Assembly: GCA_963782285.1 (NCBI GenBank)
Contig: CAWAJH010000010.1
Span: forward strand, 138,682-202,681
DNA length: 64,000 nucleotides
Source of the DNA: an uncultured Acidobacteriaceae bacterium
GTDB lineage: Bacteria > Acidobacteriota > Terriglobia > Terriglobales > Acidobacteriaceae
Reading direction: 5' to 3'
Part shown: positions 1 through 8,127 of the stretch, piece by piece
Layout: every line of letters starts with the position of its first letter
Position numbering within the stretch: the stretch's first letter is position 1
The notes under the pieces: generated by a model
The model's input: only the letters and a program-made list of their open reading frames with translations
What the model was told of the DNA's origin: nothing
Database searches by the model: none
Translations under genes and position numbers: made by a program

Positions 1-188
1 TTTGGAGGGCGGAGCGATCATCCATTATCGTTGCCAGTTTACGCAAGCGCGGGCAGGAGAAGGCGGTCAAGTTCGCGCCCAGTGTTCCTTATGCGAAGAA
101 GAACGGCGAGTCCCACCGCCAACGCGCCGGAGCCTGGATTCAGGCATTGTGTCAAGGGAGTTACTGAAGAACAGCACAAACAGCGATC

Positions 189-986
189 TCATTGATCATC
201 ATGCTTCCGCGGCTTGTTGGTCCGGGATTCAGTGAGAGCAACACGAGTCGTGCGGGCCGCACCGGCCATGGCCAAAAGGAAGCTTTCCATCTGGGGGGTG
301 AATTCGCGGCGCGCAGCCTCTTTCTGCGAGAAAGAGAAGATCCAATAGAACAAGGAACAGAGAGCAGCAAGCGACGCCCACCGCTCCAGGCGAGACCACT
401 GCAAATGGGTGTTTTGATGCGCCTGCAGGATTGAGACGACCACACTGACCAGCGAATAAAACCCAAGCCCCGCGGCTACTTGCAATTCGCGATCGCGCCA
501 GCCGATCGATAGCAATTCGCTACCTGCGGCCAAAATGAGAAAGAGCAGGATCCTGAGAATGGACACTGTCTGCTGCAGTTGAACCATAAAGAGCCACTGC
601 CGTGACGAGTCATGCGCAAGAGCGGGGACGGCGGCGAAGGGCCAGATGGCCGCGCCCGCTGCCAGAATCAAGACAGCCACAATGACTAAAACGCCGCGCG
701 ACAGGGATGCCTGGATCGGCCGGAGAGTAGACCAGGCGATTTCCACCATAACGCAGACGAGGAAAGCCGAATCGATCGCGATCTGGATGAAGTACGTGTC
801 AAAATATTTGCTGGGGTAGTGGCGCATGACTGAGTACACGACAATATCGCTCAAAATGTCCCAGACAACATAGGAACAAAAGACAGGCAGAATGCGCCAT
901 ACGCGCCTATAAATGAGCAGCACAATCACGACGGCATCGGTCAAAATGACAGCCGCGAAAACCGCGTTGTCAAAACTTATTGACAT
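189..986 (-). CDS. 7-TM integral membrane protein of unknown function (candidate peptide receptor)
   Basis: ATG 986 (MSISFDN) with a G/A-rich RBS; seven hydrophobic segments joined by short charged loops; hydrophilic C-tail; downstream of and co-oriented with the repeat-peptide gene. Confidence 0.85.
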   Translation of the reverse strand: MSISFDNAVFAAVILTDAVVIVLLIYRRVWRILPVFCSYVVWDILSDIVVYSVMRHYPSKYFDTYFIQIAIDSAFLVCVMVEIAWSTLRPIQASLSRGVLVIVAVLILAAGAAIWPFAAVPALAHDSSRQWLFMVQLQQTVSILRILLFLILAAGSELLSIGWRDRELQVAAGLGFYSLVSVVVSILQAHQNTHLQWSRLERWASLAALCSLFYWIFSFSQKEAARREFTPQMESFLLAMAGAARTTRVALTESRTNKPRKHDDQ

Positions 987-1276
987 CCCGTCCGCTCCCC
1001 CCAATTGGTTGACTCGAGGATAGCAGCATTATCGGTGAGGCGAGAGGAACGAACGCGGCGCATGTACCCAAATAATATAGACGGGTAGAAGGTAAAATAC
1101 CCACGTGCCAATACAGGCGGGACTCAACACAGACAATGAAAACAACCTGGAAGCGATCTGTGCGCCGTCCGACCTTCAGTCACGAAACAACGTCGGGCTG
1201 AGAAGACAGCCGAGCGTGGGAATTGGTTCTTGCACCCGCCGTTAGCATGCGAAGCGGCGAACCCCGCCGTATTTGC

Positions 1277-1696
1277 CTAGCTGACTGCGAGCGCGCCAGC
1301 AGAGGGCGGTATGGGGAACGGAAATGCGTTTGCCGCGCTGGCAGAGGGCGGTATGGGGAACGGAAATGCATTTGCCGCGCTGGCAGAGGGTGGTATGGGA
1401 AACGGAAATGCGTTTACCGCGCTGGCAGAGGGCGGTATGGGGAACGGAAATGCATTTACCGCGCTGGCAGAGGGCGGTATGGGGAACGGAAATGCATTTA
1501 CCGCGCTTGCAGAGGGCGGTATGGGGAACGGAAATGCGTTTACCGCGCTGGCAGAGGGCGGTATGGGGAACGGAAATGCATTTACCGCGCTGGCAGAGGG
1601 CGGTATGGGGAATGGAAACGCAAACCCCGTGCTGGCGCAAGCCAATAACACCGTTAAAAAGGCAACTTTAACTAGGTTCAAATCATTCGTACGCAT
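1277..1696 (-). CDS. Secreted multi-core peptide precursor (signal peptide + 8 x FPFPIPP cores with SASA(V/A)NA spacers)
   Basis: GGGAGA RBS before ATG 1696; Sec-type signal MRTNDLNLVKVAFLTVLLACASTGFA ends exactly at the first core; repeat variation is synonymous except one V/A change. Confidence 0.85.
   Translation of the reverse strand: MRTNDLNLVKVAFLTVLLACASTGFAFPFPIPPSASAVNAFPFPIPPSASAVNAFPFPIPPSASAVNAFPFPIPPSASAVNAFPFPIPPSASAVNAFPFPIPPSASAANAFPFPIPPSASAANAFPFPIPPSAGALAVS
1298..1618. repeat. 42-bp coding tandem repeat, ~7.6 units
   Basis: Unit GCAGAGGGCGGTATGGGGAACGGAAATGCRTTTRCCGCGCTG repeated head-to-tail with no spacers. Confidence 0.97.
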
Positions 1697-2696
1697 TGAC
1701 ACATCTCCCAGCAGCAGACAGCCGCCATACAACGTTTGCTCAATAAGAGTAACCCAAACCGACCAGGCCTGCTACAACAAAAGTGCAATTGCAAATATTT
1801 TTTTCCGGTAGTACTCATTCGGCTGTCCTTATGGTAATCAACGCTAGGTTACCTGGCATAAGTTTTGTTGAATCTTCGCCTTATCGGGGCGAAAGAGACG
1901 CAAAAGTTTCGACTTACGCGTAGCGATGGGGAAACTTCCTCGCGCGAAGACTGCACGCGATCCGGTGCAAGGCGAGGTTTCGCAGCTGGTCTGCGCGCCC
2001 AATCAAGGTCGTATCAGCGTGCTGGCTGAGTTACGCAAGGATCAGGGCGCGATTACTGTCCAGGAATGCCCATCGAATTGCGTCCGGAAGGGAAAATGGG
2101 CGTAAATCCGAAGCGCGACTCTTAGGTTTCGCAGGGTAAATACCAGCAATCATCTATCTGTTTCGATCTGCTGCCAAAGCCAGTGCGATTGATTTCACTC
2201 GGGGGAGATGCAGCGAGTTCCATACGCTTTGTTCGCGCGATACTTTGCCAGAGCAGCTTTGCCGCAGACCAAGGGACGCTCCGCGATCCATCAAACGGCC
2301 AATCGAGTGGCGGAAGTCGAGACCGATCGGACGAAACAACTTTAGATTGAGTTCCGACTGAATTTGACGAGCCAGCGGTGCGGGGATGACGAGCGCGGCG
2401 AGAAGGCGATAAAGCGCAGTGGAAGAGCGCGGCTGCGGTCAACAGATAAAAGGTTTTGTGCCGCCAAGAACAGTCGCTGAAGGGTTCACCAATTTCAGTT
2501 TGCGATTCACGCTCTCACCGGAGGGATCCGTTTGCAGTGAGCGGATTGGAAGGGCAAAAGATTCGAGATTTGGGGAGTGGTAAGGGGCGTTTCAAAGACG
2601 CTGCCGGAAGGTTACTACTCTGGAAACTTTCGTGCCCTATGGTAAATAAGGAAAAACAGTTACAGTGACACCAGGGTACATACTCAGGTCAAGCAT

Positions 2697-3065
2697 ATGA
2701 GTTCTCCCAATCCAGATTCACCGCTTCCGCCCGGTTCGCCTGCGCCCTCACAAGGACGGCAAGAGGTTCGTTGTGCGGTGCGATTTCCCCTTTCTTTGCC
2801 GGTGACATTAACGGCTCGCGAGGAAGAGGGTGAGGTCGCTGCGTCCACCAGAAATGTTTCCGCGAGCGGTGTCCTTTTTTCATTGGACCGGGACTTAGAG
2901 GTTGGAGCCGACATTCGCTTTTCAATGCGAATGCCCCATACGGTGCTTGGCTCCCCCAATGATGTTATGGTCCATTGCAAGGGGCGTGTGGTACGCTGCT
3001 CCTCAAGCCATAATGAGCATCTCGCTGCTGCCACTATCGACGATTATCGATTTGCGGAGCATTGA
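2697..3065 (+). CDS. Stand-alone PilZ domain protein (c-di-GMP receptor)
   Basis: RxxxR (RCAVR) and D/NxSxxG (NVSASG) motifs; GRVVR strand. Confidence 0.85.
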   Translation: MSSPNPDSPLPPGSPAPSQGRQEVRCAVRFPLSLPVTLTAREEEGEVAASTRNVSASGVLFSLDRDLEVGADIRFSMRMPHTVLGSPNDVMVHCKGRVVRCSSSHNEHLAAATIDDYRFAEH

Positions 3066-3095
3066 GAATGCGGTTGGCTTGAACTGCAGCCGGAT

Positions 3096-3842
3096 ATGGA
3101 AATCCTAGACGATAAACCTGAAGGCGAAGCTGTCGAAACCCCGATCAAGCCCGGGACAATCCGCGTGATTCTTGCGGATTCCCAGGCGATTTATCGAGTC
3201 GGGATTCGCAAAGTGTTCGCCCTAGAAGACGATATTCGCGTCGTAGCACAGGCAGATTCTCTGGAGAATCTGCGCGCGGCGATCGAGCGCTATCCGAGCG
3301 ACGTTGTCCTGTTAGAAGGAAGCATGCTGGCGGGCACGTCGAACGTGATTCCAGAATTACTGCGTCTTGCGCCGAGCGTGAAGCTGATTGTGCAGGCTGT
3401 TCAGGCAGACGAGAACCACACGGTTGAGCTTTACCGTCGTGGCGTGCGCGGCATTGTTTCGCGCTCGATTTCGCCGGATCTGCTGGTACGCTGCGTGCGC
3501 CGCATCGCCGCAGGCGAAACCTGGATCGACAACCAATCGGTGAATTGGGTGATTGAGGCTTATCGCGCCCAGGCAGCCTCGCTTGTGAGCCCGCGGAGTC
3601 AGCCGCGCCTTTCTCCCAAGGAAATGTCGATCATCACCTGCATCACGCAAGGGAAGCGCAACAAAGAAATCGCTTTCCAACTGGGCACCACGGAGCAGGT
3701 GATCAAGAATTATTTGCGCAAGATTTACGACAAGCTCGGTGTGTCAGACCGGCTCGAGCTCGCTCTCTATTGCCTGCACAACAAAATCATCCAGTCCGAA
3801 CTAGACGAGGAGACGGTGGCGCACAAGATCGTCACCCAATAG
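3096..3842 (+). CDS. NarL/LuxR-family response regulator with atypical receiver domain
   Basis: REC-like N-terminus; LSPKE...GKRNKEIA...KNYLRKIYDKLGV LuxR HTH. Confidence 0.92.
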   Translation: MEILDDKPEGEAVETPIKPGTIRVILADSQAIYRVGIRKVFALEDDIRVVAQADSLENLRAAIERYPSDVVLLEGSMLAGTSNVIPELLRLAPSVKLIVQAVQADENHTVELYRRGVRGIVSRSISPDLLVRCVRRIAAGETWIDNQSVNWVIEAYRAQAASLVSPRSQPRLSPKEMSIITCITQGKRNKEIAFQLGTTEQVIKNYLRKIYDKLGVSDRLELALYCLHNKIIQSELDEETVAHKIVTQ

Positions 3843-3900
3843 CGCAATCCGAATACCCACTACGACAAGGGAACGGTCGCAGAAGATTTTGATTGCCGGG

Positions 3901-4386
3901 CTATTCACGTAGCTCCGGCTCGCCGCAGGTTTGCCGGGCAAGTTCCAACAACCGGATCATCTCTGACAATTCAAACTCATTGAGATGCCCGAGAAGTTCG
4001 ATGGGCATGCGATGAATGGTCGGATCCATGGCGCGGAGTATGTCCAGCCCGGATTGGGAAATTTGCGTCCGGACGACACGACGATCCTGGCGGTCGCGAT
4101 GCCGGCGGATCAGTTTGAGGCGCTGGAGGCGGGCTAGCAGGCGGGTAATGTCTGGCTCCGCCGTGATCATGCGAGCCCCGATGGCGGCGCAGGTGAGCCC
4201 CTCCGGCGGTGCACCGCGCAGGATTCGTAAGACGTTGTATTGGGTCGAGGTCAGTCCCCAGCCGCGGGTTTTTTGCTGGAAGGCTCGCTGCAGGCAATCG
4301 GAAGTGCGCATGAGATTAAGGATCGCCTCTTCCTCCGGACTGGAGAAGGGTGCCGACTGAGCAATTTCAGATTTCAAGTTCGTCAT
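3901..4386 (-). CDS. MarR family transcriptional regulator
   Basis: LTSTQYNVLRILRG...PDITRLLARL...DRR motifs. Confidence 0.92.
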   Translation of the reverse strand: MTNLKSEIAQSAPFSSPEEEAILNLMRTSDCLQRAFQQKTRGWGLTSTQYNVLRILRGAPPEGLTCAAIGARMITAEPDITRLLARLQRLKLIRRHRDRQDRRVVRTQISQSGLDILRAMDPTIHRMPIELLGHLNEFELSEMIRLLELARQTCGEPELRE

Positions 4387-4432
4387 ATAGATCCTTCGCG
4401 CGCTCTGCCCTTCACTGTACCCGAATGCTAAG

Positions 4433-4756
4433 ATGCATCAGAGTAAATACTCGTTGCAACAAGTATTCTCTGCCGGCTTCGCTATCGCTGCGCTGATGCA
4501 GTTCATGGTGCAGGACGCCTGGGGCGGAGTTCCGGCATACCTTACCGAGTTGTCGCCGGCTCCAGTGCGCGCCACCGCTGCCGGCTTGGCGTGCCAGCTG
4601 GGAGCGCTCATCTCGTCGTGGAATGGTGAAGGGCAAGCTCTGGCAGCGGAGCGCTGGGGCAACTATCCATCGGTGCTCGCGATCACCGTTGCAGTGGTGC
4701 ATTGGCCCTGGCAGGCCTGGCAGCATTGGGCCGCGAAGCGGTGGGCACGGAGATAA
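4433..4756 (+). pseudogene. C-terminal remnant of an MFS (Jen1/NanT-like SHS family) transporter
   Basis: MQFMVQxAWGxVPAYLTELSPAPVRAT..GLAxQLG motif; N-terminal part absent and motifs degraded. Confidence 0.7.
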
Positions 4757-5116
4757 CCGAGACGTAGATTCTCTGGCGAGCAAACGACAGATTCGGTGAG
4801 CCGCCAACAAATTCAAATCGAACAACTCTGTTCCGCGATTCGCCGTTTTGCGGCTCCAATCGACCTTTCGTACAGCGCACGCAAGCACTCCGGCAGTGGC
4901 AGGTAATCACATTGTGTTACTTGTTCGCTAAAGCCTCATATGACCAAGCGCGCAGTGTCGGCCCTCTCCATTCCCACCTTTGCGGCATTGTTCGGGTTGG
5001 TTCAAACAGCTAGCTTCAATGCAACGGAAACCCGGATCCATGGACCTCGAATGCGATTGCGCGGCGGGCGAGAAGGATCGCGGTGCCGATGAGGCAAGTT
5101 CCGACGGTCTGATTCC

Positions 5117-6073
5117 ATGTTGGACAAAACAAATCTGGTGATGCTGCTCTTCGGTCTCATAGTGCTTGGAGTGAGTGCCATCGGGGTCGTGCTGATCCGA
5201 ATGAAGAGGGCGAAGGCTGTTGCGAGATCCCGCATCTCGGATGAAGTCAGTGGGCAGACTCGACCAAAGAATGCACAGGATCTGCAGGCTCTCGATACTC
5301 TGCGCTTCGCGGTGGAGATGGGCCGGGCCAGCCTGGAGCCTGAGGTCGCCCTGACAGGCAGCGGAGCCGGCGAATTGCAGGGAGAGATGCAATCGTTTGC
5401 CGCGCCTGCGGAGCAGAAGGTCGCGATGACTGCGCCAGCATCGCGAAAGGGACATGAGCCCGGTGCAAGCTCCGTTGCACCGGACAGGGCGACGACGGCA
5501 AACGACATTCCGTGGTGGCTTGCCGAAGCTCCGCCACGGTCGGATACGTCGCTCACGCAGTCGCGCGTTCCGAGAGTCGGGAGCTCTCAACCTGAGCCGA
5601 ACGGCGTGCAAGGCGGCGGTCTGGAGCAGGAGCGGACCGAGAGAACACCGGAAGAGGCCAGAGCAGTGCGGGTGCCGCGATTGACCGAACTCAGGGGCAC
5701 GCTGTTCTCAACGGGGATCAAAGAGTTGGATCATGCGAGGCACGAAAACGAGCACGCGGCCGAAACGAAACAAACGGCGAACGAGATGGCGCCACTGGAG
5801 GCATTTCTAGGCGCCGCAGAGCTCCAAAGGAACGCGACTCCGCCGCAAACGGCAGATGCGGAAACCATGGGGCCGATTCTTCCGGCGCCGCGAGAACGGG
5901 TTGAGCCCGTAACGCGAAACGACGAAGAACGGAAGAGTGCTATGCAGTCGCGGCTGTTTCTCCCGAGGCCTGCGAAGCCGGCGAAGGGTAAACCGCGCCA
6001 GGATGCGCGCACGCCGATTGACAAGGTGGAGATTTTGCCCTCGCGGCGCGGGCAATACAAGAGGAAGGACTGA
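5117..6073 (+). CDS. Hypothetical membrane-anchored, low-complexity protein
   Basis: N-terminal TM helix, Pro/Ala/Glu-rich body, basic C-terminus ILPSRRGQYKRKD. Confidence 0.7.
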   Translation: MLDKTNLVMLLFGLIVLGVSAIGVVLIRMKRAKAVARSRISDEVSGQTRPKNAQDLQALDTLRFAVEMGRASLEPEVALTGSGAGELQGEMQSFAAPAEQKVAMTAPASRKGHEPGASSVAPDRATTANDIPWWLAEAPPRSDTSLTQSRVPRVGSSQPEPNGVQGGGLEQERTERTPEEARAVRVPRLTELRGTLFSTGIKELDHARHENEHAAETKQTANEMAPLEAFLGAAELQRNATPPQTADAETMGPILPAPRERVEPVTRNDEERKSAMQSRLFLPRPAKPAKGKPRQDARTPIDKVEILPSRRGQYKRKD

Positions 6074-6172
6074 CGGCGGAGAGATGAGAGGAAATGCCGG
6101 GCTCCGCGGAATGAGAGCCGGCGAAACTTTTCAACGAGCTTATTATCCATAGCTTAATGAACGGAAAAGCCC

Positions 6173-6219
6173 AGCCTTCCACTTTCCAGCAATACGGGAG
6201 GTGGGAGGCTCGGTTTTTT
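6173..6219 (+). terminator. Rho-independent terminator
   Basis: AGCCTTCCACTTTCC/GGGAGGTGGGAGGCT stem (with G-U pairs) followed by a T-run. Confidence 0.65.
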
Positions 6220-7091
6220 ATGGCGCGAAGAAGGGTGAGGGGAACGTCTGGCCGGACTCGTATCGCGGCATGCTGTGTAGATTTCAGTTACTCCCCCCGC
6301 CCCCCTATGTTTTGGGGCTAAAGGGTTTAGTTTCAGTTGCTTGTACCCTCGATCATTTGCTCCATCCCATTGATTCTAAAGGAGGTAAAAGCTAATATAG
6401 GCAGAATCAACGACTTAGCAGCGTGGACCGTGAACCGTGGTCGGCGATGTTTTTGCCCCAAAAAACGGGCGGCCCGAGGAGTGCCGACCATGCCAAACCG
6501 GCATCCCCGAGCCGCCTGATGAAGGAAACTGCTCTGTCTATTTCGAGTGTAGGGAACCCGTGGAAATAATCTGCAAAGTCCCGGAGAGGAATAGCGGGTT
6601 TTGGAATGAGGGGGAAGCGAGGTTGTGGGAGGACTGAGAGATTGACAGAGGCAGAGGAAAGGCTGGCAGCCAGGCGCGAGAGTGAGACGTGCGGCGAGGT
6701 TGGAGGCCGCAAGGGCGTTTGAATTAAGCCGCTGGCGCGGCGGACGCTATGCGTGCGATACTTTCGACATCGTGGTCTGCTTCGTGTCCGGAATCGCATC
6801 TCGCCTGTTTCCTCTATCGCTTTATTATTCTATTCGTTGCGGGCAGGAAATGATTCAATTCCCATAGCGCGACCGCATCCGCCGCAAACGCCACCGGCTC
6901 ACTTCAAACGACCCTATCGAAACTGCCCCGGAGAAGAACGTGGGTCATCCCTGCTCATCGTGTCGGGGCAGTCCCGATAGAGACCTAACGTTTGTCGGGA
7001 GTTAACTGTGATCCCGAATACTCGCGTGGCCCCCGAAGGAGGGCCAAAGGGTTGGCCCCAAGCCTTCGGATGGCAATGCTCGTTTTTTTGA

Positions 7092-7649
7092 TCAGCTGAC
7101 CGCTTCCAGAGTTCTGCGTGCTGCCACAGAGTACATGAGCCGGGTGAATCCGCTCGTGATGAGGTTGATGCCGAGGATCGTTCCAATAGCCCAAATCGAA
7201 CTGCCCGGCCAGGGACGCCAGATCAGATACGCCAGGAACAGAGTCACGATGCCGTCGAACAGCGCCCATCCGGAGCCGGGCAATGTGCGGAACTGGAAGA
7301 ACACAACAGTCTCCAGCAGTCCCTCGATGAAGAACATCACCGCCATCGCCAGCGTAAGAGACTCCAGTGCGAGTCCCGGATTGAAGGCCAGGTAGAGGCC
7401 GCCAAGAATATAGACCGCGCCGATCAGTAGGCGCCACAGGAATGATCCTGCGCTTCGTGCCGCGAAGGCGGACGCCACGTAAGCGATGCCGCCGAAAACG
7501 ATGATCCAGGCGACCGCGATGGAGACGCCGATGCCGGTCGCGAGCGGTAGAAACAGCGCCAGAACTCCCAATATGACCATGACGATGCTCCATCCGATAG
7601 AGGCCCCGGCAGTTTGCTTGAAGATGTTTGTTGTGCTTTGTGCATTCAT
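7092..7649 (-). CDS. HdeD/DUF308 family membrane protein
   Basis: AGGAGGAG RBS; six TM segments; WPGSSIWAIGTILGINLI motif. Confidence 0.9.
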   Translation of the reverse strand: MNAQSTTNIFKQTAGASIGWSIVMVILGVLALFLPLATGIGVSIAVAWIIVFGGIAYVASAFAARSAGSFLWRLLIGAVYILGGLYLAFNPGLALESLTLAMAVMFFIEGLLETVVFFQFRTLPGSGWALFDGIVTLFLAYLIWRPWPGSSIWAIGTILGINLITSGFTRLMYSVAARRTLEAVS

Positions 7650-7827
7650 GTTTTCTCCTCCTTTTCTTGTGAGCCGTGAGACGCGGACTCGAAGCCTCGC
7701 GTTCTTGCGGCAGTTGTATCGGCTGGCCGGCTCAGCCACGAGGGCGGGAGTCTGTTGCCCGCCCTCAACGTCCAAGTCGGGGCCGATGTTTCGATGTGAA
7801 TTGCGAAGGACGCTACACGCGTCGCTC

Positions 7828-8127
7828 CTAGTGTGCCTCGGCCTTCGACTCGATCCCCTTGAGCAACTTCTCAAACTCGACGATATCGGCTTCGAGATCG
7901 GTTTTCGCCTGGTTCCAGGCTTCACCGCTGGACTTCTTCAGCTCCTGCAGTTTCCGCTGGATTGACTGTTTCTTCGGAGCCAGGTCGGCGATCGCCTTGA
8001 TCTCGGCGTTCGCTTTGGCGTTCTCCGCCTGTGCCTTCAACGTGTGCAGCTTGGCCTCAGCTAATTTGATCTGGGACTCAAGCTTGTCGTGGACTGCTTG
8101 CTTTGCAACGATTGTTTCGATGGTCAT
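7828..8127 (-). CDS. Small coiled-coil hypothetical protein
   Basis: GAGGAG RBS; helical heptad pattern, LQELKKSSGEAW motif. Confidence 0.8.
   Translation of the reverse strand: MTIETIVAKQAVHDKLESQIKLAEAKLHTLKAQAENAKANAEIKAIADLAPKKQSIQRKLQELKKSSGEAWNQAKTDLEADIVEFEKLLKGIESKAEAH

Follow-up and report, generated by a model that had tools for sequence, protein, structure and literature searches.

The window analysed here, a stretch of 64,000 nucleotides on contig CAWAJH010000010.1, derives from a peat-soil Terracidiphilus (Acidobacteriaceae) and carries, on the minus strand at positions 1277-1696, a gene for a predicted exported repeat protein of 139 amino acids. It opens an ancient module of the Acidobacteriaceae, in which a seven-helix inner-membrane protein (7TM protein) is encoded by the second gene. 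The sequences show the anatomy of the gene, its family, its linkage to the 7TM gene, the selection on each copy of the repeated core and the asymmetric conservation of the 7TM protein; that the product is exported, perhaps cut, bound by the 7TM protein and active in signalling is inferred. As far as sequence comparison allows, the chances are about even that the product is an exported peptide polyprotein or multivalent ligand which works with the adjacent 7TM protein in signalling.

Anatomy of the repeat gene and its family

The repeat gene was delimited by its translation, by the tandem array in the DNA, by syntenic orthologues with a homologous signal peptide and by a test of the antisense frame. 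Its frame reads, in order, a Sec-type signal peptide MRTNDLNLVKVAFLTVLLACASTGFA (1619-1696, minus strand), five copies of FPFPIPPSASAVNA, two copies of FPFPIPPSASAANA, one copy of FPFPIPPSAGALAVS and a stop codon. The array (1277-1618, minus strand) is made up of seven full FPFPIPPSASA(V/A)NA units, the last unit FPFPIPPSAGALAVS and the stop, and the mature repeat protein consists of eight 14-residue Pro-rich units in tandem. Tandem Repeats Finder reported a sole array at 1292-1622 with a period of 42 nt, 7.9 copies, 94% matches, no indels and a score of 578. When the eight units were compared with each other, five synonymous third-position sites and one nonsynonymous site (V/A) were found. 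The mature region has no K or R, and the unit is uncharged. In the sequence upstream (1697-1712, minus strand) a Shine–Dalgarno-like GGGAG is located 8 nt 5′ of the ATG.

The presequence can be parsed into MRTNDLNLVK, VAFLTVLLA and CASTGFA and, with its n-region, its h-region and small residues at positions −3 and −1 ahead of the array (small-x-Ala), has the features expected of a Sec protein cleaved by signal peptidase I (SPase I). In the alignment with relatives, positions M1, L6, N7, K10, V11, L14, L17, A21 and A26 are invariant, and 59 of 62 relatives have a small-x-small motif close to the end of the presequence. A lipoprotein reading of LLAC was considered and rejected: when a strict lipobox was defined as [LVI][ASTVI][GAS]C closing the signal peptide, its Cys being invariant, only 15 of the 62 distinct relatives conform, and the Cys itself is missing in 21. 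Many of these relatives have Val at −1, and the LLAC of the Terracidiphilus protein precedes the small-x-Ala site. In an AlphaFold (AF2) model of the repeat protein the signal-peptide helix (residues 3–22) was predicted with confidence, and the repeat part was modelled without secondary structure at a predicted local distance difference test (pLDDT) score of about 45. The model fits an extended or disordered chain and does not support a folded repeat domain.

Using the downstream membrane protein as a search handle, we found about 100 loci in Terracidiphilus and other Acidobacteriaceae in which a signal peptide and 1–16 Pro-rich units are encoded directly upstream of the conserved 7TM gene. 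In these genes nothing but repeats follows the signal peptide, and the stop codon lies 2–3 residues past the last core. In one species of the same genus, for instance, the gene in the syntenic position encodes a homologous signal peptide and a different unit, IPAGPFPTPPPSF; further units of the family are VPMGPVPMPPASLAAA, AVPYGPLKLPPPSMAA, APWGPTKFPPPNVAVT, GPGIPAPIPPQTGIVNTVA (16 copies), SPILPHPYPTKSAAMQ and FPWFPTPLSAQAANT. The family core can be written as x-P-x-x-P-Φ-P, often ends in PP or PPP, and is followed by an Ala/Val/Ser-rich linker of 1–12 residues; the Pro-x-Pro motif of the core is kept across genera. Cores are species-specific yet identical within a gene, and linker length varies even inside single genes (SF/VVSF/AMSF, S/SVAL, SA/SAIASA). 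The mature parts contain 33% Pro and 15% Ala, 0.9% R and almost no Cys, Asp or Glu, which gives a net charge per unit of 0 or +1. One Terracidiphilus locus encodes a signal peptide and a single copy only, with a predicted mature peptide of 17 residues.

The 7TM protein was present in 135 of 151 genomes of the genus (83 of the 86 high-quality ones) and in 138 of 201 genomes representing 91 of 128 genera of the family, and it was sparser across the class. Among 30 fetched loci of the genus, 26 had a co-directional repeat gene directly upstream of the 7TM gene; inspection of the other four revealed two more repeat genes and two contigs that end early. The same arrangement was seen in most loci of other genera and, in addition, in 62 further distinct genes from public assemblies. 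A search for related loci with a narrower alignment returned genomes of uncultured Terracidiphilus and Acidobacteriaceae only, with no cultured host strain among them. We found no description of a peptide/7TM system of this kind in the literature, and there is no Pfam or NCBIfam family for it.

Repeat genes also occur in a second family of the order, for example those encoding NGIGDPMPPATIAK and SGTGLPIPGSGLR, where they precede genes for a multi-pass protein of about 245 amino acids and a small single-pass protein. Its repeats are of an analogous G-x-G-x-P-x-P-P type, and its membrane protein was linked to the 7TM protein as a homologue when broad profiles were compared by hhalign (probability 93%, E = 3e-7, 209 columns). 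The broad alignment takes in unpublished genomes (G050, G041, G046, G048, G055, G047 and G052), on which the homology partly rests; a thin comparison of two versus three sequences gave a probability of 1.5%, and only the broad profiles linked the two families. Two kinds of irregular loci were noted beside these families. The locus with the closest 7TM protein (L139 on CAWDKT010000012.1, 64% identity) has a repeat gene with the unit VPGTPLPLPPSVAAA that shifts frame within the array, which means that the gene is broken or that the repeats were misassembled. The open reading frame (ORF) in front of the 7TM gene encodes, at loci of two other genera (L083 and L086), a signal peptide and approximately 11–15 hydrophobic residues that lack a Pro-rich motif; either the module may take quite different peptides there, or these ORFs may be spurious.

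For a test of selection, repeat copies were compared within each of 26 genes, separately for core and linker. In the cores 5 nonsynonymous and 129 synonymous changes were counted at an expected nonsynonymous fraction of 0.70 (p = 3e-61), compared with 31 nonsynonymous and 54 synonymous changes in the linkers (expected fraction 0.74, p = 4e-13). Core and linker differ significantly (Fisher p = 2e-10). Hence, the cores are under very strong purifying selection within genes, and the spacers are held more loosely. The many silent changes at preserved cores imply that the copies are not merely recent duplicates and that each core is kept.

The strand of the gene deserves particular attention, as the array region is open in all six frames. 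On the plus strand a Gly-rich ORF of 166 amino acids (1311-1811, MGNGNAF...) stays open through the array, and its third codon positions coincide with those of the repeat gene; an ORF of this kind can mislead gene callers and synonymous/nonsynonymous tests. It might be argued that there is no gene here, only a 42-bp minisatellite with open frames as a by-product, or that the Gly-rich antisense ORF is the true product. In favour of this are the six open frames; the antisense frame also shares the synonymous excess and scores slightly better in a crude codon-usage test, the exact protein is missing from a collection of 15 billion proteins, and a word-indexed protein search with the repeat protein retrieved no relative at E <= 0.01. 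However, in all 88 related genes the sense frame consists of Met, signal peptide, repeats and stop, while the coincident antisense frame is interrupted by stops within the repeats in 22 of the 88 and within the signal-peptide region in 14. Furthermore, a Shine–Dalgarno-like motif precedes the ATG in 55 of 62 distinct related genes, place and orientation before the 7TM gene are kept across a bacterial family, and nonsynonymous changes are kept out of the cores. Since relatives keep the sense frame, break the antisense frame and retain the Shine–Dalgarno motif, we regard the minus-strand gene as real and the minisatellite or antisense explanation as extremely unlikely. Two measures were discarded as strand tests. 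Codon-usage likelihood was uninformative, since it mainly mirrors amino-acid composition, and it leaned slightly towards the antisense frame; the synonymous/nonsynonymous ratio was rejected as proof of frame because one antisense frame shares the third positions.

The 7TM protein and the flanking genes

The partner gene (189-1004, minus strand), recognized by its synteny and by an AF2 model, encodes a 271-residue protein with seven predicted transmembrane (TM) helices and one C-terminal helix (mean pLDDT 81.7). Pfam, NCBIfam and PDB sequence searches gave no match for the repeat protein, for the 7TM protein or for a third protein of about 174 residues described below. An exact look-up was negative for both the repeat and the 7TM protein; the ESM Atlas had no usable match for the former and only unnamed acidobacterial clusters for the latter. 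In fold searches with the 7TM model only bundles of the G-protein-coupled receptor (GPCR) type were matched, and these weakly: the best Foldseek match had E = 0.02 and a TM-score below 0.5, and VIA-align gave Z = 10–11.6 and a root-mean-square deviation of 4–5.6 Å over 190–220 aligned residues, where a level of about 13 is advised for helical bundles.

By the positive-inside rule the 7TM protein is predicted to have its N-terminus outside and its C-terminus inside. On this topology the cytoplasmic helix halves, the cytoplasmic loops and the C-terminal helix are much better conserved than the periplasmic halves, with values of 0.80 versus 0.64 within the genus (p = 2e-11) and 0.63 versus 0.45 across the family (p about 1e-11 to 1e-13 for the genus and family tests), and all 35 of the 35 best-conserved columns fall on the cytoplasmic side. 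At four Terracidiphilus loci a second, diverged 7TM paralogue (24–34% identity) lies directly downstream of the first (L035 2301-2999, L024 1104-1904, L028 2377-3171 and L026 2506-3168).

The repeat gene and the 7TM gene are separated by a spacer of 272 nt (1005-1276, minus strand), in which no significant RNA fold (structure z = 0.21) and no terminator-like site were found; an attenuator is thus not supported. Judging from their orientation, the two genes are probably co-transcribed. On the other side of the repeat gene lies a divergent intergenic region of 1 kb (1697-2696) that contains no convincing ORF and no Rfam match; the Rfam scan covered positions 1-8000 and gave no match there. The divergent layout is conserved in relatives, although the region may differ in length, being about 0.55 kb long in the syntenic relative G017. 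This region may hold the regulatory sites of both operons.

The divergent neighbour kept with the module is a gene for a PilZ-domain protein (2697-3065, plus strand; PF07238, E = 3e-11). It is followed by a gene for a NarL/LuxR-type response-regulator-like transcription factor (3096-3842, plus strand), identified by GerE, Response_reg and NCBIfam NarL-like matches and by synteny. The pair of PilZ and LuxR-type genes was found at 22 of 22 loci of Terracidiphilus; for other genera, where the flank retrieved measured 1.5 kb, the count was at least 9 of 29 loci. Between species the LuxR-type regulator is 84–94% identical, compared with about 50–60% for the 7TM protein and 47–79% for the PilZ protein. 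Altogether, the neighbours of the repeat gene comprise genes for a GH5-like hydrolase, CrcB, DUF190, cytochromes and the PilZ, LuxR and MarR proteins.

In other genera the 7TM gene is followed by a gene for a protein of about 174 amino acids, predicted to have one N-terminal TM helix and a cytoplasmic helical domain. The Terracidiphilus genome has its own homologue of 172 amino acids on another contig (C5:200097-200615, minus strand), between ndk and an aldo-keto reductase gene. Further along the window, an ORF of 107 amino acids at 4433-4756 (plus strand) matches a portion of a 318-residue ORF in the syntenic relative (L009 13919-14875) with 84% identity across 61 residues and may be a truncated membrane-transporter gene.

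Processing and function of the Pro-rich units

The original prediction had read a processing code into the array, by which general periplasmic peptidases (SPase I, dipeptidyl peptidase IV (DPP-IV)-type and S9 enzymes) would release FPFPIPP, linear or cyclic, or the 14-mer; it overlooked the conserved gene of the 7TM partner next door. Much of what it described can indeed be read in the translation: GFA, VNA and ANA precede the cores, the spacers start with SA-SA and the cores run FP-FP-IP-P. It is also correct that dibasic sites and Cys are missing from the mature part, the sole Cys sitting in the signal peptide. No maturase of the type known from RiPPs (peptides made on ribosomes and modified after translation) had been noticed nearby, and domain searches of about 10 kb on either side of the repeat gene found no such enzyme and no peptidase either. 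When homologues were inspected for conservation of spacer rather than core, the core turned out to be the conserved part, so that it is still plausible for a short Pro-rich peptide to be the functional unit. Conservation of the core is borne out by the selection on it (5:129 versus 31:54); the heptapeptide boundary is not supported. In a residue-by-residue alignment of the segment SASAVNAFPFPIPP with SASFIPAGPFPVPP from close relatives, VNA corresponds to IPA and F to G. As VNA matches IPA inside the invariant core of the relatives, the boundary of the heptapeptide is arbitrary and VNA is no signal for the end of a spacer.

The individual steps of the scheme meet similar difficulties. A small-X-Ala motif was said to precede every core, and the relatives do have Ala more often than any other residue at this place; in many of them, however, the −1 residue is F, T, M, S, V or E, and spacers are as short as one or two residues (S, SA or SF in some) or differ within one gene. 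DPP-IV-type enzymes, which are specific for X-Pro and X-Ala, would also consume FP-FP-IP from the core, and the proposed phasing in X-Ala/X-Pro dipeptides fails in the spacer SASAVNA itself. With its seven residues this spacer divides into SA-SA-VN-A, and as VN in third place is no substrate, trimming would halt at VN or leave the register and would not end flush with the core. Linkers of relatives such as SF, RLAAT, TTAVM and HVAET do not fit the dipeptide pattern. SPase I requires a preceding membrane-embedded h-region, and the internal spacers, where its recognition pattern was thought to be copied, have none. A search of the genome for S9 peptidases gave 13 matches, none of them adjacent to the array; since 13 of 14 control genomes have the S9 family as well, its presence does not discriminate.

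Cyclisation was likewise not supported, as neither a conserved recognition sequence nor a maturase is present, and in many relatives no core end that could be defined carries a C-terminal Pro. Orbitides, the amatoxin MSDIN family and cyanobactins are multi-core cyclic RiPPs. As regards cyclisation, the layout of the repeat gene is best compared with that of the proline-rich macrocyclic peptide precursors of sponges, which carry a signal peptide and up to about 25 repeats of recognition sequence and core, the Pro-rich cores having 7–8 residues and ending in Pro (PMC10945851). FPFPIPP is Pro-ended and resembles such cores. In macrocyclic RiPP precursors of this type, however, highly conserved recognition sequences are paired with cores that are hypervariable even within one precursor (PMC10945851). 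Here the reverse is seen: a gene repeats one and the same core, its linkers differ both in length and in sequence, and no macrocyclase or protease (subtilisin-like PatA/PatG, S9 prolyl oligopeptidase) is linked, the conserved neighbours being only the 7TM, PilZ and LuxR genes. Taken together, release by the proposed set of peptidases is very unlikely, and the specific peptidase code should not be carried forward.

According to the reading that we favour, the precursor would cross the inner membrane and shed its signal peptide. The Pro-rich units, here (VNA)FPFPIPP with a short Ala/Ser linker, would next serve the neighbouring 7TM protein as its ligand, whether cut in the linkers by envelope proteases or still joined in a multivalent chain. 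The variable periplasmic half of the 7TM protein would recognize the lineage-specific peptide, and the conserved cytoplasmic face and C-terminal helix would relay the signal to conserved cytoplasmic partners, for which the PilZ protein, the LuxR-type regulator and the single-pass protein of about 174 residues encoded after the 7TM gene in other genera are candidates. Copy number among relatives ranges from 1 to 16 and includes the 17-residue single-copy form, and a peptide unit therefore fits better than a rod of fixed length. The most specific form of this reading, an ancient and vertically inherited peptide signalling system in which 1–16 Pro-rich peptides are the ligand of a GPCR-like 7TM receptor with PilZ, LuxR and the 174-residue partner as output, can be put forward only tentatively.

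Several points weigh against a ligand–receptor relationship. No protease is linked to the module, and since in diderm bacteria the Sec route ends in the periplasm, the peptide may always stay inside the cell that makes it. The 7TM protein is without a recognizable output domain, its topology was deduced from the positive-inside rule, and its GPCR fold matches are below the informative level for helical bundles (Z < 13; Foldseek E >= 0.02). Taken by itself, the synonymous/nonsynonymous test does not separate the sense frame from one antisense frame, which leaves the strand to the stops and Shine–Dalgarno motifs of the relatives. Peptide divergence did covary with that of the periplasmic half of the 7TM protein (partial r = 0.43 with the cytoplasmic half controlled; 0.30, p = 0.002, with PilZ controlled), compared with r = 0.14 (p = 0.09) for the cytoplasmic half with PilZ controlled, but partial Mantel tests are liberal with related sequences. 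In raw correlations, peptide distance followed PilZ (r = 0.58) and LuxR (0.60) at least as well as the periplasmic half of the 7TM protein (0.49). Most of the covariation is thus due to shared descent, and the remainder is suggestive only.

Two other functions have to be weighed against signalling. The repeat protein could be an uncleaved structural envelope protein, that is, an extended, polyproline-II-rich periplasmic spacer, tether or matrix component, for which the 7TM protein could serve as anchor, chaperone or assembly factor, with curli-like regulation by the divergent, CsgD-like LuxR regulator. The composition of the mature part, rich in Pro and Ala and predicted to be extended or unstructured, is in line with such a role, as are linkers of varying length, known from spacer proteins, the missing protease, and the LuxR-type regulator, PilZ gene and long intergenic region on the divergent side. 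On the other hand, the range in copy number down to a single-copy form argues against a function that depends on length, and the Cys of a possible lipid anchor is not conserved. Moreover, selection acts in each copy on the exact core residues, non-Pro residues included, which exceeds the needs of a spacer, and lineage-specific cores change in concert. A structural role is therefore unlikely, though the least so of the alternatives.

Alternatively, the units might be Sec-exported Pro-rich antimicrobial peptides, multi-copy as in apidaecin precursors, from which the membrane protein protects the producer. Insects do have multi-copy precursors of Pro-rich antimicrobial peptides, the order of peptide gene and membrane protein gene is the usual one for toxin and immunity, the peptides change rapidly from species to species and the partner is variable on its outer face. 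However, the module is old in the family and, within the genus, syntenic and nearly universal (83 of the 86 high-quality genomes), and it is not patchy or mobile in the manner of bacteriocin loci. Its units are neutral or +1 and hydrophobic, not Arg-rich, and the cationic Arg/Pro-rich motif (PRP-type) of apidaecin/oncocin-type peptides is not found in them. No exporter or outer-membrane release system is linked, and a strongly conserved cytoplasmic face with a C-terminal helix would be unexpected in an immunity protein. Because the module is near-universal, syntenic and vertically inherited, we disfavour a toxin/immunity function and consider it quite unlikely.

Relation to known systems and significance

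A close parallel to the module is found in fungal pheromone polyproteins such as S. cerevisiae MFalpha1 with its receptor Ste2 and the Kex2-processed repeat proteins (PMC7329392), which likewise combine a signal peptide with identical peptide copies and short spacers, vary in copy number, are species-specific in their peptide and have a seven-helix membrane partner. The acidobacterial proteins differ from them in that dibasic (KR/RR) Kex2 sites are missing, the linkers of most relatives containing no K or R, and in that there is no consistent X-Ala phasing and no processing enzymes were identified. The module is bacterial, with predicted export to the periplasm and no G proteins, and its 7TM partner is encoded by the adjacent gene and has no detectable sequence relation to GPCRs. 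In the Phr/Rap and PapR/NprX (RNPP) systems of Gram-positive bacteria a small Sec-exported precursor is encoded beside the gene of its sensor, general extracellular proteases free a linear peptide, and peptide and sensor co-diverge. These precursors usually contain one C-terminal peptide, which is re-imported by Opp and bound by a cytoplasmic receptor with tetratricopeptide repeats; in contrast, the precursor described here is a tandem array, its partner is a 7TM membrane protein and the host is a diderm acidobacterium. In its design the module resembles both eukaryotic pheromone polyproteins and bacterial Sec-exported signalling peptides, and it has the defining features of neither.

Single components of the module also have counterparts. 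The TonB linker, (Glu-Pro)n(Lys-Pro)n, joins two functional domains and tolerates sequence change. Like the repeat protein it is high in Pro and predicted to be an extended, unstructured periplasmic chain, but the repeat protein has no flanking domains and every core residue is strongly selected. Proteins of the 7TMR-DISM type (for example RgsP, PMC6107284) share with the 7TM protein the seven helices in the inner membrane, a presumed sensing of periplasmic signals and a link to cyclic di-GMP (c-di-GMP), given here by the neighbouring PilZ gene. They have large periplasmic sensor domains and fused cytoplasmic enzymes, in contrast to the bare seven helices and C-terminal helix of the present protein.

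Even if its role were structural, the repeat protein shows an unusual pattern of selection, in which cores are held copy by copy within a gene and replaced together between species. Acidobacteria are among the most abundant bacteria of soil and peat, and to our knowledge no acidobacterial cell–cell or envelope signalling system has been worked out. Most genomes of Terracidiphilus carry the 7TM module, as do about 70% of the sampled Acidobacteriaceae genera. If the ligand–receptor relationship holds true, the module would be a bacterial counterpart of signalling by pheromone polyproteins and 7TM receptors, of a kind not described in bacteria. Should the peptide be the ligand of the 7TM protein, this design of a polyprotein precursor and its receptor, so far known from eukaryotes, would extend to bacteria and would provide a handle on c-di-GMP (PilZ)- and LuxR-linked regulation in Acidobacteriaceae.

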